From: Shigella phage MK-13
Direction: 5' to 3' (one strand)
Sequence record: MK509462
Length of the DNA stretch: 64,000 nucleotides
The notes beneath the pieces were generated by a model. It saw only the letters and a program-made list of their open reading frames with translations. It did no database searches and was not told the DNA's origin. Within the stretch, counting starts at the first letter, position 1, and each line of letters begins with the position of its first letter. Shown here in pieces: positions 10,989 to 60,617 of this stretch. A program made the translations under genes and the position numbers.

Positions 10989-11328
10989 ATATTACTCTCG
11001 TGTGTTGGTTAACATGACATACATATTATTTCGCGTGCATGTTTAGACCAAATAAATTAATTTTGCTGTTGAATAAAAATTGCTTTCCTGTTGAACAAAT
11101 GGCGCGGTATTATACGAGTTGTGAGTGTTAACGAACAACGAGTATTTGTTTTATGAGCGAAGCGAATAGGATTAATAAAGGTTATTATCTTTAATAAAGT
11201 CCATAAATGCCGAAGGCATTTATTAATAACGCGTAGCGCAATTTGCCACTTGTTCTATAAGCACAACACAGCGATACTAGATTGCGTCAAACATGACTTG
11301 AACCCCACTATATTTTGAGGATACATAA

Positions 11329-11997
11329 ATGCAAGAGATCACTCTCTCCGAACGTACACTCCAGTTGCTGGCCAACTTTGAGACCATCAACCCATCTATC
11401 GTTCTGACACCGGGTAAGATGCTGCGCAGCATTAACGATTCGTCTACTGTTATCGCCGTGGCACAGATCGAAGAAGACTTCCCGTTTGAGTTCCCTATCC
11501 TGGACCTGACCAAACTTCTGGCCATCCAGCGCCTGCCTTCCTTCAAAGGCGGTAAAGCCGAATTCCATCAGGACTACATCCTGTTGAAAGGCGAAAGCTC
11601 TCAGCTGCAATTCTGGCGTTCTGCTAAAGAACTCACTGTTGTTCCGGCTGACACCATTGAACTGCCGTCTGTCGACTTTGAAGCGATCATCACTCCAGAG
11701 AAGATGAAAGAACTGACCCGCGCCTGTTCTACCCTCGGTCACAAGACTGTGCGCCTGGTTGCTCAGGGTGGCAAAACTCGTCTGGTTGCAACCACCACTA
11801 CCCTGGATAACTCCAACAACTACACCGTTGAGCTGGGTGAAACCGCGCTGCCGGACTTCGTCATGCCACTGGACGTTGCCAACCTGAAGATGATCGAAGG
11901 CAACTACACTCTGCGTGCCTGCGCTGAGCTGCAGATGGTGAACTTCCAATCATCCGACGCGACGATCAATTACTTCGTCGGCGCACAGATTGAGTAA
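11329..11997 (+). CDS. sliding clamp, gp45-like
   Basis: Length and sequence pattern match T4 gp45; precedes gp44/gp62 as in T4. Confidence 0.9.
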   Translation: MQEITLSERTLQLLANFETINPSIVLTPGKMLRSINDSSTVIAVAQIEEDFPFEFPILDLTKLLAIQRLPSFKGGKAEFHQDYILLKGESSQLQFWRSAKELTVVPADTIELPSVDFEAIITPEKMKELTRACSTLGHKTVRLVAQGGKTRLVATTTTLDNSNNYTVELGETALPDFVMPLDVANLKMIEGNYTLRACAELQMVNFQSSDATINYFVGAQIE

Positions 11998-13524: not shown

Positions 13525-13989
13525 ATGGCGCGCAATACGCTAGACATATTGAACATTTCAGCCGTCAACGATGAGGCCAGCATCGTTGATTGTATGGTTG
13601 AAGTTCAATTGAACCAAGATCGGCCAGGAATATTCCTGGGGATCAAGGAAACACTGAGCCGAATTGGGGTAAACACGCGCCAAGAGCCGAATACTCTGTA
13701 TCAGACTTGTCATATTCTTCACAAGTATGGCAAGTATTATATCGTCCACTTCAAGCATCTGTTTATGCTGGACGGGCATTACAACGGGTTTAACCGCGAA
13801 GATGTCCTGAGGATGAACCGCATCATCAAGCTGCTCGAGCAGTGGAATATGGTGAAGGTCATTCATCCCGAGCAGGTCACCGAAGCCGCCGATATGTCAC
13901 GCATTAAAGTGGTTAAACACGATCAGGTTCCTGAATGGAAGCTGGTTCCAAAATACATTATCCGGCCTACAAAGGCCAAAAGCGAATAA
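13525..13989 (+). CDS. regA: translational repressor RegA
   Basis: Strong similarity to T4 RegA (LYQTCHILHKYGKYYIVHFKHLF...EWKLVPKYIIRP). Confidence 0.85.
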   Translation: MARNTLDILNISAVNDEASIVDCMVEVQLNQDRPGIFLGIKETLSRIGVNTRQEPNTLYQTCHILHKYGKYYIVHFKHLFMLDGHYNGFNREDVLRMNRIIKLLEQWNMVKVIHPEQVTEAADMSRIKVVKHDQVPEWKLVPKYIIRPTKAKSE

Positions 13990-25381: not shown

Positions 25382-25708
25382 ATGAGCAGTAAACCAACAT
25401 ATGTTGAAGTCATGCGTCATCTGGCTCAGTACGCCACTGACAATCTGAACTTAGATGCAGACGAGGTGAAATACCCAAACGTCAAGAAAATGATTGACGG
25501 TGAAGTTGCCACAGACGATGCGTTGGATAAGTTTGCAGGCCTCCGCACCAAGAAGGATCTCGGCGGTGATGAACTGGACGCTATCGAAATTGTAATGGAC
25601 CTCGAAGAAGAGTTTCAGGTCGAAATCGACGACGGTTGGCTGGGTAGTAAAGGCGATGACCCGACCATGGGTGAACTCGCTGAACTCGTGGTTGCCCTGC
25701 GCAAATAA
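25382..25708 (+). CDS. acyl carrier protein-like protein lacking the phosphopantetheine-attachment serine
   Basis: DLGGDELDAIEIVMDLEEEFQVEI aligns with ACP helix II [24 protein letters not shown] but has Glu where the modified Ser should be. Confidence 0.7.
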   Translation: MSSKPTYVEVMRHLAQYATDNLNLDADEVKYPNVKKMIDGEVATDDALDKFAGLRTKKDLGGDELDAIEIVMDLEEEFQVEIDDGWLGSKGDDPTMGELAELVVALRK

Positions 25709-57115: not shown

Positions 57116-58726
57116 TTACTCTTCGGTGCCGAAATTACCACCATTGTCTTTTAATTCTGCCTTGATATCAATCTCACCTGGTCCCGTAGGGGATGCAGGG
57201 GTTGCACCTGACAGAGAAGAAGCGCGACCAGCACCTTCGGCATATATGATGTTACCATTAATCGTCTGAGCAACCGTCAGTTTGTCGGCGATGATCTCTG
57301 TTGCCAGAATCTTAGGAACCTTCAACGTCCCGCCGACCTCCAGAGTCTCGCAGATGATGCGCAGAATATTCTGTGCTTGCAACTCAGCCAGGTCACTGAA
57401 TTTCATCAGCGCTGTACCCGCAACCACGTTGGAGTAGTTGTTGGAGTGAAGGTGATAGACCTCGCCAGTCTTGCGCTGCACTTCAGTTCCTTTGACCGTC
57501 AGGTTGTGGTCCCCGCCGACATAATAGCGCTTGTCAAACATGGTCAGGTCATAATGATCCTTCACTGACTTGTTGACGACGTCGCCGTTCGGGAGCATCT
57601 GTTTGTAGGAGCCGGACATGTGCATCCAATGAAGACGCTCACCACCAGGAGTGTCGTCCACCTCCATTATGTGACCTGCTCGGGATGCCATGACGTTGTT
57701 GTACGGGTACTTGGAGCCACCCGCTGCCGGAACCATAGTTTCGCCCGTGTTATCAATATCCTGTACGCGCCCTGTAGGAGCCGGAGTTGCCTGCTCTTTT
57801 GGGGTACGATCAGGGATAGGCTCAGACCATTTCCCGTTCTGTTGTGCTGGGGCGGCTGAAGCTGTATTCGCCGGACCAGGCCAGCGGTAGCCCAGGACTG
57901 ACGAACGGCTGAATCGGCTGACCTTCACTGAATCGGATTGGTTGCCACCGATACACCAGACATAGTTTGCATCGAACTTCTGTACAAACGCCACGTGTCC
58001 AAATGTAGGGTTGTTACCGCGCCGGAAGACTACGATAGCACCATATTGTGGCGCTGACAGTGCACTACCCCATGTAAGGTAAGATCGGGCAAGAGCGGAG
58101 CGCGTAGACGTGTATCCAGCCTGCAACATAACCCAGCCCACGAACGCCGCACACCACGACACTTCATCTTCAGAAGCACCAAGGGAGGTTGTCTTGTGAT
58201 ATTCTATAATGCGCGGGTTGTTGTTGAACTTTCCGGCGTACTCCTTGACACCCAGCTCACCACGAGCGATGGTCATCCATTTTTCAGGATCATACCCACC
58301 AACAGGTGGTTGTGGATCTGGTTGTGGTTCGTCTTCTTGTTTCACAGGAACGTCAGTGACGGCGTTGTACGCCTGACGTTCTACCGATTGAACGACCTGT
58401 CCGAGAGCCAGCGGGTTCGTGTCAGCTCCATCAGTGGGACTTGCCCCAGGCCAAGTCCAAGTGATACGCAGGTTCTGGTATGCTTCGTCAAGGGCGAACC
58501 CCATAACCTCAGTGCCAGGAATGATACCCGTTGGAGACCAACCTAAACCAGCAGAGGAGGCGTTTGAAGCAGGCATCAGTACCTTCGCCCATGGGAGTTT
58601 GTCCGTAGGCAGGAGGACGGTGTCATCAGTGTGGACGCCATAGATGCGGACGGCGACGCGCCCGTTTTGGTCTGGATCGTTGACATCTTCAACGGTGCCA
58701 TAAAACCATCTCATATTGTCTAACAT
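57116..58726 (-). CDS. baseplate central spike gp5-like with CHAP-type peptidoglycan hydrolase domain
   Basis: N-terminus MLDNMRWFYGTVEDVNDP matches T4 gp5 OB-fold start; central WCAAFVGWV...GHVAFV resembles CHAP Cys/His peptidase rather than T4 lysozyme. Confidence 0.7.
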   Translation of the reverse strand: MLDNMRWFYGTVEDVNDPDQNGRVAVRIYGVHTDDTVLLPTDKLPWAKVLMPASNASSAGLGWSPTGIIPGTEVMGFALDEAYQNLRITWTWPGASPTDGADTNPLALGQVVQSVERQAYNAVTDVPVKQEDEPQPDPQPPVGGYDPEKWMTIARGELGVKEYAGKFNNNPRIIEYHKTTSLGASEDEVSWCAAFVGWVMLQAGYTSTRSALARSYLTWGSALSAPQYGAIVVFRRGNNPTFGHVAFVQKFDANYVWCIGGNQSDSVKVSRFSRSSVLGYRWPGPANTASAAPAQQNGKWSEPIPDRTPKEQATPAPTGRVQDIDNTGETMVPAAGGSKYPYNNVMASRAGHIMEVDDTPGGERLHWMHMSGSYKQMLPNGDVVNKSVKDHYDLTMFDKRYYVGGDHNLTVKGTEVQRKTGEVYHLHSNNYSNVVAGTALMKFSDLAELQAQNILRIICETLEVGGTLKVPKILATEIIADKLTVAQTINGNIIYAEGAGRASSLSGATPASPTGPGEIDIKAELKDNGGNFGTEE

Positions 58727-59069
58727 ATTGAGTTCCGGTTGTCAAACAAGGATTTGAAGGTATTTATGCGCAGCGGATTTTGCCTTATATACTATAGGAA
58801 GCTCTGCTTCCGTTCATTTTATTTGTTATTCGATCCTATTCGCTTCGCTCATCACACCGCCTTATGCAGGCAGCACCATTCCAATGCCATGGAGGCATAA
58901 GAGCGAGGCAATAACTGTACACCTCAGAACACTCCTTGAAAAATGGTATTTTACTGACAATCTGATTCAAAATAGACGATCCCCAACAAATGACTCAGGA
59001 ACAAGCCCATTATAACAATTTCAGGTAAAGAGAGCACGCGTTAACCTGTTTTACAGTTAAGCCAATAAA

Positions 59070-59089
59070 AATCCCGCCGAAGCGGGATT
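59070..59089 (-). terminator. rho-independent terminator (minus strand)
   Basis: aatcccgccgaagcgggatt with A-run upstream on + strand, i.e. T-run downstream on minus strand. Confidence 0.6.
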
Positions 59090-59236
59090 ACTGTTTCTTA
59101 GACAACCTGACCTTGAGGGCTTCGGTTAACAAGTCAAGATGCCACGGCATCGACTCGTTGATTTCAAATATGCTATAGCCGTGTAACTTCAATTCATCAC
59201 ACATCACGAAGTAGGATAGTAAATCAGTTTCAAACA

Positions 59237-60043
59237 TTAGATGAAAATTTCATTAATGCTATTGAATTCGATCTTGTGTTCCTTACCACACTTCGGACAC
59301 TTGATTGAACTCTTGTAGTGGATGCGCGGTATTTTGTGGAAGAAGTTCTTCGTAATGCTGTCGATGACATCTGATTCGATGTTATCCTTCACCCACCCAA
59401 CAAACGCTTCTTTCACACGGCGGCGCTCGGTGGCCTCTTCCGGAGTGATCCCGATTTCTTCAGGATTCTCAACCTTCCACACCTGACCGTCATCGTCGTA
59501 CAGACAGTCGATAAAGGTGGCCAGCATCATCTCAACACTTGCAGCATCAGACAGCGCCGTAGCGTCTGAGAAGGAAGGTTGGCGCATCTTGAGGTGATAT
59601 CCGCCTGGCAGGTCAAACGTCTCCTGGAAGCCGTCCTGTGCAATGCATTTTACATTGTTCAGCGGGATAGGCAGAGTCAGTTCCTGCTCACAGGGAACCA
59701 TCTGGCGCTTTTCTTGGCCATCTCCCAGATCGATCGTTTCTTCAACCTGATTATTGCACTTGTAGCGAATCTTCATCAATTCGCCGATGGCGATCATGCG
59801 CATACGGATGAACACTTCCTCAACAACACCGATTGGCAGTTTGCTGAAAGGCGCACCTGCATTCACACACTCGCTGAAGAGGCTCTCCATCATGGCCGCG
59901 CGTTCTTCAATCGGCGTTTGCGGATCTGACACCTGAAGTAATAAAGTTTGTTGCCCCGCAGTAAAGGCGCGATATTTGATCACAGTAGGCCAAAAGTCGC
60001 TTTTATATGTCTTTTCTGTTCTGGGCAATGATGGCAAATTCAT
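59237..60043 (-). CDS. hypothetical protein with C-terminal zinc ribbon (268 aa), possibly baseplate-associated
   Basis: GGAG RBS; CPKCGKEH near C-terminus; upstream of gp5 on same strand. Confidence 0.5.
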   Translation of the reverse strand: MNLPSLPRTEKTYKSDFWPTVIKYRAFTAGQQTLLLQVSDPQTPIEERAAMMESLFSECVNAGAPFSKLPIGVVEEVFIRMRMIAIGELMKIRYKCNNQVEETIDLGDGQEKRQMVPCEQELTLPIPLNNVKCIAQDGFQETFDLPGGYHLKMRQPSFSDATALSDAASVEMMLATFIDCLYDDDGQVWKVENPEEIGITPEEATERRRVKEAFVGWVKDNIESDVIDSITKNFFHKIPRIHYKSSIKCPKCGKEHKIEFNSINEIFI

Positions 60044-60092
60044 AATGTATCTCCACGGTATATTGTAAGAGTAATTATAACGAGGAATGAAA

Positions 60093-60617
60093 ATGCGCGG
60101 ATTTTGTTTTAGTGAAATAGGCAAAGAATTGTCTATACAATATCCCGATCCCAACACAGACTTCTTTATCTTCCTGTCCGATTATGCCAAGAAAGAGAAT
60201 ATTCTCCAGGTGGCAATGAAGCACGAAGATTATAAGTTCTGTCGTCTGGGCGTCAAGGATTTATTGTCGTATGGCCTACAGGTGGTCATCGTAGACCCGT
60301 GCTACAGCCCTATCGACGATGAAGAAGTGTTGCCTGTCTATGTCCACCGCAATATTGACACCCTTGACAAAAATTATCCCGATTGTATTGTTATCGGTGA
60401 ACTCATCTCTTATTATCATCGTGGGCGAAAGCTGGAACAGATTAAAAGTTATTTTCAAGAGGGGGTTGGTCAATATAAGATGAATGCCCTCAGTAGTGGA
60501 TGGAGGGTGCTGTCTTCAGCAGGTGGTGCCGACTATATTAAGATGCGTGTCTACCAATATGTTGTGGAGCGCGATTATGAACTGGAGAAAAGTAATGCAA
60601 AACGAAAAACCCGTTGA
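60093..60617 (+). CDS. hypothetical protein (174 aa)
   Basis: GAGGAA RBS; second ATG chosen by spacing. Confidence 0.45.
   Translation: MRGFCFSEIGKELSIQYPDPNTDFFIFLSDYAKKENILQVAMKHEDYKFCRLGVKDLLSYGLQVVIVDPCYSPIDDEEVLPVYVHRNIDTLDKNYPDCIVIGELISYYHRGRKLEQIKSYFQEGVGQYKMNALSSGWRVLSSAGGADYIKMRVYQYVVERDYELEKSNAKRKTR

Follow-up and report, generated by a model that had tools for sequence, protein, structure and literature searches.

The gap upstream of the baseplate gene gp5 appears to encode a functional structured RNA on the gp5 strand, a view supported by purifying selection, covariation, strand-specific G·U pairs and the lack of a shared reading frame. The fuller picture favoured here, to which about even confidence is attached, is of a structured RNA of about 200 nt, specific to its phage family, that would be made early from its own extended -10 promoter, would end or be attenuated at a stem-loop (D), and probably acts via a protein at a tandem-G·A hairpin shared with a second locus. 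The window referred to below is the whole stretch of DNA analysed, 64,000 nucleotides long, and all positions are counted from its first letter.

Gene order and extent of the gap

The 801 bases around the region (58600-59400) are 100% identical to the reverse strand of Shigella phage Ag3 (phiSboM-AG3), a ViI-like phage of the genus Agtrevirus in the Ackermannviridae. The distance from the region to gp45 differs by 1,377 bp between the window and the Ag3 GenBank record. No tRNA or tmRNA genes were found within the 64-kb window. The genes that bound the region are:

59237-60157, minus strand: gp26, baseplate hub
59088-59237, minus strand: 49-aa gene (orf00083 of Ag3), recognized by peptide and codon-position conservation
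57116-58726, minus strand: gp5, baseplate hub and tail lysozyme

In minus-strand order gp25 comes next after gp5, and gp33 is annotated nearby. The start of orf00083 overlaps the stop codon of gp26 (TAATG), and its peptide is conserved from Agtrevirus to the Vibrio phages. Identity to Kuttervirus and Taipeivirus is about 90% at the first two codon positions and about 60% at the third; judged by this codon-position-specific conservation, orf00083 is a real small gene. The first-pass annotation had described 510 bp free of open reading frames. No frame of at least 60 aa is indeed present on either strand, but orf00083 covers the upstream 150 bp of that stretch. Since 59088-59237 on the minus strand is a conserved 49-aa gene, the actual non-coding gap is 58727-59087, or 361 bp. 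The block formed by orf00083 and the gap is 94-95% identical between Agtrevirus and Limestonevirus, synonymous sites included. A metagenome scan with the orf00083 peptide returned a single truncated contig.

Conservation of the gap and absence of coding

When 58600-59400 is used as an 801-nt query, 279 phage records match, nearly all of them from Ackermannviridae, and 264 cover at least 80% of the query. The 361-bp gap alone has 94.5% identity to Limestonevirus, and the stretch from about 58787 to 58942 has 82% identity to Kuttervirus. Comparison with related phages, which had been recommended as a check, thus finds the region conserved across genera, with a core that is 76-97% identical. In the alignment of 24 distinct relatives, the identities relative to Ag3 are:

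Limestonevirus: core (58838-58930) 97%; third codon positions of gp5 61%
Kuttervirus: core (58838-58930) 83%; third codon positions of gp5 48-49%
Taipeivirus: core (58838-58930) 76%; third codon positions of gp5 53%

Core identity is far above that of the gp5 third positions, so the gap is not a spacer. By this measure the core is under strong purifying selection, with a constraint similar to that on first and second codon positions. The 5′ domain (58931-59002) is conserved within subfamilies only and drifts in a near-neutral way between genera, as does the A-rich linker downstream of the core. The AT-rich parts are the least conserved.

Within the conserved blocks, indels of one and two nucleotides separate the clades, and the frame in which conserved nucleotides such as AAGGCGGU are read differs from clade to clade. 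No open reading frame is common to all clades of the 24-relative alignment beyond the first 11 codons, and a conserved frame is ruled out because of these frame-shifting indels. The opposite-strand frame annotated in ChubbyThor and the frames annotated in Bullseye and Mansal were rejected on the same grounds, none being conserved and all being interrupted by frame-shifting indels. Apart from a few short hypothetical frames that are absent from relatives, the structured core is unannotated in the records inspected.

The conserved fold and its strand

The helices were derived with RNAalifold and by inspection of the alignment, and were scored over 22 distinct sequences. The 29 base-pairs, in seven helices, are 99.7% paired. 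Double (compensatory) changes are found in 6 of the 29 pairs; few clades are sampled, and each compensatory class may go back to one or two events only. In 500 shuffles the observed percentage paired, number of cells changed on both sides and covariation score were never reached, and controls with slid partners are 33-48% paired. On the opposite strand the same positions are 90.9% paired, as against 99.7% on the minus strand, with 56 G·U cells. The G·U pairs and this strand asymmetry indicate that the fold belongs to the gp5 (minus) strand. Its predicted elements, in 5′ to 3′ order, are:

58797-59002, minus strand: putative ncRNA of about 205 nt, with both ends predicted
58931-59002, minus strand: 5′ domain, from conservation
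58838-58930, minus strand: core, from conservation and covariation
58915-58927, minus strand: short helix CUG/CAG, 98.5% paired
58884-58898, minus strand: stem-loop A, AUGCC-UCCAU-GGCAU, with an invariant stem
58889-58892 with 58876-58879, minus strand: possible H-type pseudoknot between loop CCAU and AUGG, with one covarying pair
58856-58874, minus strand: hairpin B, GCUGCCU-GCAUA-AGGCGGU, 7 bp, 100% paired
58838-58852, minus strand: tandem-G·A hairpin, A-Y-GA-GC-(loop of 3-4)-GC-GA-R-U, from conservation and covariation
58812-58837, minus strand: A-rich linker, 44-61% identical between genera with the A-rich character kept
58797-58811, minus strand: stem-loop D, GGAAGC-AGA-GCUUCC (helix 7), candidate 3′ end or attenuator

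The short helix is maintained in Taipeivirus-type sequences as CUG/UGG by means of wobble pairs. The stretch GGCAUUGGAA within 58876-58898 is invariant. The pseudoknot is a possible element that rests on a single covarying pair (119/131), which changes from A-U to C-G in 9 of the 22 rows, possibly as one event, with zero unpaired intermediates. In hairpin B, two pairs have double changes (C-G to U-A and U-A to C-G) and one U·G pair is invariant, while the loop varies in sequence and length. Miltonvirus and the Erwinia and Vibrio phages have other hairpins in place of stem-loop A and hairpin B.

A nested hairpin had been pointed out in this part of the gap. It is present, and its inner CCAU/AUGG pairing covaries (A-U to C-G), but it lies at 58861-58901, about 4-5 nt away from the position given. 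Its outer helix, CUUAUGC/GCAUAAG, is 93.4% paired with zero double changes, being broken at one position in nine rows of Kuttervirus-type sequences. This helix cannot form together with stem-loop A and hairpin B, for which pairing is 100% and two double changes are seen, and the two arrangements could be alternatives. The nested hairpin makes up only part of the conserved fold and is probably not the main one. Folding of the single sequence is uninformative (z = -1.1 for the RNA strand and -2.7 for the other strand). A long-range helix between AUUUGUU near the 5′ end and AACAAAU in the linker, seen in the minimum-free-energy fold of Ag3, was rejected, being absent from the Limestonevirus and L020 alignments.

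Transcription signals around the fold

The signals that flank the fold on its two sides are:

59064-59089, minus strand: intrinsic terminator closing the gp26-orf00083 transcript, from a scan and covariation
59041-59060, no strand assigned: imperfect dyad TTAACTGTAAAACAGGTTAA, conserved, between the terminator and the -10 box
59009-59017, minus strand: candidate sigma-70 extended -10 promoter TGTTATAAT, from position and variant compensation
58791-58796, minus strand: -10-like TATAGT, directly after stem-loop D
58761-58768, minus strand: T4-type late promoter CATAAATA for gp5, published and invariant in relatives

The terminator is made of AATCCCGC-UUCG-GCGGGATT followed by the tail TTTTTATT, with an 8-bp stem that contains five G-C pairs. 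It thus has the G+C-rich stem-loop, the U-tract and the location after a stop codon that define an intrinsic terminator. The stem covaries between genera (CCCGC/GCGGG, CCCCGC/GCGGGG and CCCCAC/GTGGGG), and the same terminator is annotated in LIMEstone1. An earlier call of a terminator at 59070-59089 on the minus strand is borne out by the stem, the UUCG loop, the tail and these compensatory changes. The dyad pattern GCTTAnnTGTnnnAnAGGT persists between genera and is found in Miltonvirus and Erwinia phage Bue1 as well.

The extended -10 sequence TGTTATAAT noticed in the first pass exists, but at 59009-59017 on the minus strand, 20 nt from the 58989-58997 assigned to it. There it agrees with TGnTATAAT, the form of a sigma-70 extended -10 promoter; the pattern TGNTATAAT has four occurrences in the window against 0.87 expected. 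The alignment position of the box is identical in 24 of 24 relatives. In half of them the box ends in C or A. The TG extension is kept in all 12 rows with TATAAC or TATAAA, and the seven rows that lack TG all have a hexamer ending in T. Such compensation between TG and the last base is, at the level of the alignment, what a functional promoter of the sigma-70 extended -10 type would be expected to show. No -35 partner was found at normal spacing. Transcription is predicted to start near 59002. A literature search for Ackermannviridae transcriptomes, primer-extension data or ncRNAs found nothing relevant.

At the other end, stem-loop D is preceded by an invariant AACGG and followed by UAUA(A/G)UA. 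Its stem varies between AA/UU, AU/AU and CU/AG, and is GGCGGC/GCCGCC in Erwinia. There is no U-tract after it on the RNA strand, a T-rich run lies on the opposite strand, and the terminator scan called it on the opposite strand only. Since stem-loop D has no U-tract, it may terminate inefficiently and the RNA could run on into gp5. The -10-like box that follows reads TATAAT in Kuttervirus, Taipeivirus and Erwinia. A -35-like TTGAAC lies only 15 nt away in Kuttervirus, and a -35 is absent in Ag3 and Taipeivirus.

The late promoter CATAAATA is located 34 nt before the gp5 ATG (58726), and its ATAAATA is invariant in 24 of 24 relatives. It is a putative promoter of T4 late type, judged by its TATAAATA-like box, and is also annotated before gp5 in LIMEstone1. 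The near-late-promoter sequence placed about 35 nt before gp5 in the first pass is confirmed by this box, which had already been published as Porf084 (PMC3121705). The invariant late promoter comes after the structure, which therefore cannot be part of the late gp5 mRNA, and a role as a leader is possible only for transcripts from the upstream sigma-70-type promoter. No pairing between the upstream sequence and the gp5 ribosome-binding site, of the kind that would sequester it in T4 style, is conserved across clades.

The tandem-G·A hairpin and the gp45 leader

The tandem-G·A hairpin is the most widely conserved module of the fold and the only one that reaches Miltonvirus, Erwinia phage Bue1 and Vibrio phage K362. 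The tandem G·A itself never varies, while the Y-R closing pair changes between C-G and U-A. In K362 the hairpin sits directly before the gp5 ribosome-binding site, in the 5′ UTR. The RNA from the gp5 locus has one such hairpin in Ag3 and two in Miltonvirus and Erwinia. Elsewhere in the genome the hairpin occurs only in the leader of the sliding clamp gene, gp45:

11118-11172, plus strand: two tandem-G·A hairpins in the gp45 5′ leader, from sequence match and covariation
11329-11997: gp45, sliding clamp

Positions 11153-11172 on the plus strand are a 20-nt exact copy of 58833-58852 on the minus strand. A second hairpin of the same type precedes this copy and also covaries, and another stem-loop follows the two. 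The motif occurs twice, and no more, in each Aglimvirinae genome. Tandem-G·A hairpins in general show no enrichment in the window, and it is the GAGY...RCGA type alone, at these two loci, that stands out. A further match at 25675-25689 is antisense within an open reading frame and was judged to be due to chance.

In every lineage examined, the gp5 and gp45 loci share the closing pair and the 3′ flank:

Aglimvirinae: AUGAGC..GCGAAUAG at both loci, then GA except at the Limestonevirus gp5 locus (AU)
Kuttervirus: ACGAGC..GCGAGUAG at both loci
Taipeivirus: ACGAGC..GCGAGUUGA at both loci
Erwinia phage Bue1: AUCCGAGCGUAGCGAGUGAUAA at both loci

Concerted evolution of this kind, as read from the alignments, suggests that one trans-acting partner serves both loci or that gene conversion takes place between them. 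The gp45 cluster has the order gp45-gp44-gp62-regA, its last member being a homolog of the translational repressor RegA (PF01818, E = 1.9e-34, 13525-13989). The hairpin might be the operator of a phage RNA-binding regulator such as this RegA homolog, and the RNA upstream of gp5 a decoy or co-regulated partner that titrates it and so times clamp expression relative to baseplate assembly. This specific version is doubtful. The targets of T4 RegA are start regions without structure, which makes any link of RegA to the hairpin speculative. In T4-type phages the sliding clamp is also a co-activator of late transcription. If the proposal were true, the phage would carry a protein-sponge RNA whose recognition motif is new.

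Comparison with known RNAs

An Rfam 15 scan of Ag3 58000-60000 (E up to 10) found no family on the core and gave sub-threshold matches on the terminators only. Rfam searches of the Kuttervirus, Taipeivirus, Miltonvirus, Erwinia and Vibrio loci and of the gp45 leader (E up to 1) found no family. The covariance search for structured RNA suggested in the first pass, when run against Rfam, thus places the core in no catalogued family. The core motif has zero matches in 185,579 bacterial and archaeal genomes, and zero matches in E. coli genomes with E up to 10. In IMG/VR beyond Ackermannviridae it has chance matches only, and the extended motif is found only in Ackermannviridae contigs. As far as these searches reach, the fold is probably an RNA family specific to Ackermannviridae and absent from Rfam.

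T4-type phages have other compact structured RNAs. The pseudoknot in the leader of the T4 gene 32 mRNA binds gp32 and is located in the leader of the gene that it controls, while the small stable RNAs C and D of T4 are in a tRNA cluster and have no known function. The RNA upstream of gp5 resembles them in kind, but apparently has no sequence or positional homology to them.

The arrangement Y-GA-GC-loop-GC-GA-R is the layout of G8 A9, stem II and G12 A13 in the hammerhead ribozyme. The rest of the hammerhead core (C3, G5, A6, A15.1), however, is not conserved at the G·A hairpin. Ag3 reads GUGAUGA there, which is box C-like, and two relatives read CUGAUGA. The hammerhead was rejected, as CUGAUGA is found in only 2 of 24 sequences, the others having GUGAUGA, UUGAUGA, GUUACGA or UUCACGA, and no Rfam ribozyme matches. 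As for a k-turn, the Y-R covariation favours a continuous helix without a 3-nt bulge; the bulged alternative pairs poorly in Taipeivirus and has no room in Vibrio phage K362.

Lambda-type nut sites consist of boxA and boxB, and HK022 has put RNAs. In Ag3, CGCUCUUA is identical to the lambda boxA and stands directly before a hairpin whose stem has 5 bp and whose loop has 5 nt, and the unit lies between a promoter and a stem-loop. Unlike in a nut site, there is no spacer between the boxA-like octamer and the hairpin. A lambda nut site was rejected because the octamer is found only in Ag3 and Limestonevirus types and is lost in Kuttervirus (CGCCUUUA) and Taipeivirus (CGCCUUAU). The resemblance to boxA is probably coincidental.

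Like CsrB and RsmY, the RNA would be an ncRNA that carries the same candidate protein-binding hairpin as an mRNA leader, but in Ag3 it has one G·A hairpin per RNA and no repeated GGA loops. A CsrB-like RNA was rejected, the weak RsmX and RsmY matches in Rfam falling on the terminators and below threshold. An Hfq-dependent sRNA was also discarded: stem-loop D is followed by UAUAGUAUAU, with no 3′ U-tail, and a terminator is called on the opposite strand only. Hairpin B is, presumably, only loosely similar to a type I-F repeat. An RNA anti-CRISPR that mimics a repeat was rejected for it, since the stem varies between genera and no CRISPR direct-repeat family in Rfam matches.

Alternative explanations

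The structure could act in cis as a leader or attenuator, with sigma-70 transcripts crossing it and stem-loop D into gp5, and a bound protein or ligand gating the early or middle transcription, or the translation, of gp5 by riboswitch-like attenuation or processive antitermination. The order of promoter, aptamer-like fold, stem-loop and gene is that of known attenuators, and the two mutually exclusive conserved folds (93.4% versus 100% paired) are the pattern expected of a switch. Read-through at stem-loop D is plausible since it has no U-tract, the K362 hairpin is within the gp5 5′ UTR, and the gp45 hairpins are in a leader and are followed by another stem-loop. The main gp5 mRNA, however, would escape such control, as the invariant late promoter stands between the structure and gp5. 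Moreover, no conserved pairing connects the structure with the gp5 ribosome-binding site, no conserved alternative pairing overlaps stem-loop D, and no riboswitch or leader family in Rfam matches. On this balance, control in cis is rather unlikely. A protein of 18-37 codons is hardly credible. Its frame, which begins at an ATG at 58898 with MPPWHW(N/K)G, stays open in all clades, with similarity over the first 11 residues, but the ATG has no Shine-Dalgarno sequence before it and is buried in an invariant stem, the clades read AAGGCGGU... in different frames after residue 11 owing to indels of 1-2 nt, and conservation reaches well upstream of the ATG.

Two further explanations were considered. 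Composite promoter/stem-loop cassettes (PeSLs) of T4-like phages terminate upstream transcription and shield late genes from early read-through (PMC2839356, PMC4122927). The gap could be punctuation of this type and nothing else, that is, a terminator, an early promoter, a stem-loop and a late promoter, with conservation that reflects DNA signals or recombination of cassettes. It resembles the PeSLs (PMC2839356) as a compact intergenic unit with a candidate sigma-70-type promoter and a stem-loop, here D directly before TATAAT or TATAGT, and the 94-95% identity of the orf00083-plus-gap block between Agtrevirus and Limestonevirus could reflect recent exchange. The PeSLs, though, are tens of base-pairs long, multi-copy and found in hyperplastic regions, with near-consensus -35 and -10 sequences (Arbiol et al. 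2010, PMC2839356; Comeau et al. 2014, PMC4122927), whereas the element upstream of gp5 has no proper -35 and is single-copy in a conserved baseplate block. Many dispersed copies were not found in the 64-kb window, where covariance model R1 finds one full copy and a weak match at gp45 that is driven by the G·A hairpin. The element also has about 100 nt of extra conserved, covarying RNA structure that is absent from PeSLs; between genera this stretch, from the promoter to stem-loop D, is as well conserved as first and second codon positions, and DNA signals leave unexplained the covariation and G·U asymmetry in hairpins that are neither terminator nor promoter. Punctuation by itself is accordingly improbable. 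An origin of replication is more improbable still. In T4, oriE is found in the region of gene 5 and requires early transcription, and by analogy with oriE and oriF the promoter transcript here would be an R-loop primer in the late region near gene 5. A promoter-like box does occur in the late-gene cluster, and the local G+C content falls, in a moderate dip, to 37-45%. Of the small RNA, structured leader or origin-type element first proposed for the region, a structured RNA on the gp5 strand fits the first two. An origin does not agree with the absence of iterons, repeat arrays and repeat families beyond chance pairs, with a constraint on RNA-type pairing that includes G·U, or with AT-rich parts that are the least conserved, and is very unlikely.

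Proposed function and significance

In the favoured reading, that of an early, family-specific structured RNA, host RNA polymerase would start near 59002 early in infection and produce an RNA of about 205 nt, whose 3′ end or attenuation point would be stem-loop D (58797-58811). The RNA would act mainly through a factor in trans that recognizes the G·A hairpin, most likely an RNA-binding protein of phage or host, while the pseudoknot and hairpin B would serve as a scaffold or provide additional contacts. The same factor would link the RNA upstream of gp5 to the control of the gp45 clamp mRNA. Stem-loop D may also guard the late gene gp5 from early read-through, as the stem-loops of PeSLs do in T4-like phages.

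The ViI-like phages of Ackermannviridae, among them CBA120, Det7 and LIMEstone, have found wide use in biocontrol and therapy, and several hundred of their genomes have been deposited. A tightly conserved RNA, with a hairpin that co-evolves with the clamp leader, suggests that these T4-related phages have a layer of control, post-transcriptional or transcriptional, that has gone unrecognised, and the G·A hairpin is a short RNA motif, open to testing, with which the partner protein can be sought. Even if the element were only a cis attenuator, it would still account for the tolerance of an early promoter within a late baseplate operon.

Structured elements upstream of gp45 and gp5

The sliding-clamp gene gp45 is preceded by a conserved structured leader, whose architecture parallels that of the gp5-upstream element, the conserved structured RNA region in the gap between gp5 and orf83.

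10990-11328 (+), divergent 340-bp intergenic region upstream of gp45, conserved structured leader
11118-11139 and 11148-11172 (+), tandem-G·A hairpins of this leader
13525-13989 (+), homolog of the translational repressor RegA (PF01818, E = 1.9e-34)

Besides the two tandem-G·A hairpins, the gp45 leader contains a -10-like TATTAT and an AU hairpin, together with a stem-loop of 9 bp, AUAAAUGCC-GAAG-GGCAUUUAU, that lacks a U-tract. The gene order is gp45, gp44, gp62 and then the regA-type gene, as in T4, where the RegA gene likewise follows these three; the homolog in the window has about 23 additional residues at its N-terminus. The distance from gp5 to gp45 is 1,377 bp longer in the window than in the GenBank record of Ag3 (NC_013693.1), even though the gp5 and gp45 loci themselves are identical in sequence. 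Either a segment, possibly a mobile gene, was gained or lost at some point along the intervening DNA, or the window derives from another isolate.

Within the gp5 gap, two RNA segments that flank an AU hairpin are complementary to the gp5 5' UTR, and stem-loop D, the candidate 3' end of the predicted RNA, has a second potential role on the opposite strand.

58955-58960 and 58932-58937 (-), UUGUCA and CAAGGA segments, either side of the AU hairpin
58737-58750 (-), UCCUUG-UU-UGACAA in the gp5 5' UTR, on the gp5 side of the late promoter
58797-58830 (+), stem-loop D followed by a T-rich run (GTTCATTTTATTTGTTATT), scoring as a terminator

The complementarity is confined to Aglimvirinae and is absent at the homologous positions in Kuttervirus and Taipeivirus, so that it may be due to chance. 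Since stem-loop D scores as a terminator on the (+) strand and the linker beside it keeps its A-rich character in all genera, it could also terminate antisense transcription leaving gp5.

The 49-aa gene orf83

59234-59240 (-), overlap of the orf83 start with the gp26 stop, compared with the homologous positions in L008-L023
60229-60256 (-), near-consensus sigma-70 promoter candidate, TTGACG-16-TATAAT (11/12 matches)

The ATG of orf83 that overlaps the gp26 stop (TAATG) is restricted to Aglimvirinae. Kuttervirus, Taipeivirus, Miltonvirus and the Erwinia phages have ATT in its place (TAATT), from which the peptide (IFEIDLLSYF...) is nevertheless kept, with no ribosome-binding site there; this combination suggests a non-AUG start with termination-reinitiation coupling, or fusion to gp26 by frameshift. 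The promoter candidate lies in the divergent region upstream of the late-type gene gp26, and because of it the gp26-orf83 unit may be transcribed early too.

When 58727-59237 was compared between Ag3 and Limestonevirus (L006), identity was 95.5% at the third codon positions of orf83 and 94.5% in the gap; at the third positions of the adjoining gp5 it was just 61%, and the gp26 end is likewise clearly diverged. This block of about 0.5 kb would reflect either recent exchange between genera or an extra nucleotide-level constraint on orf83.
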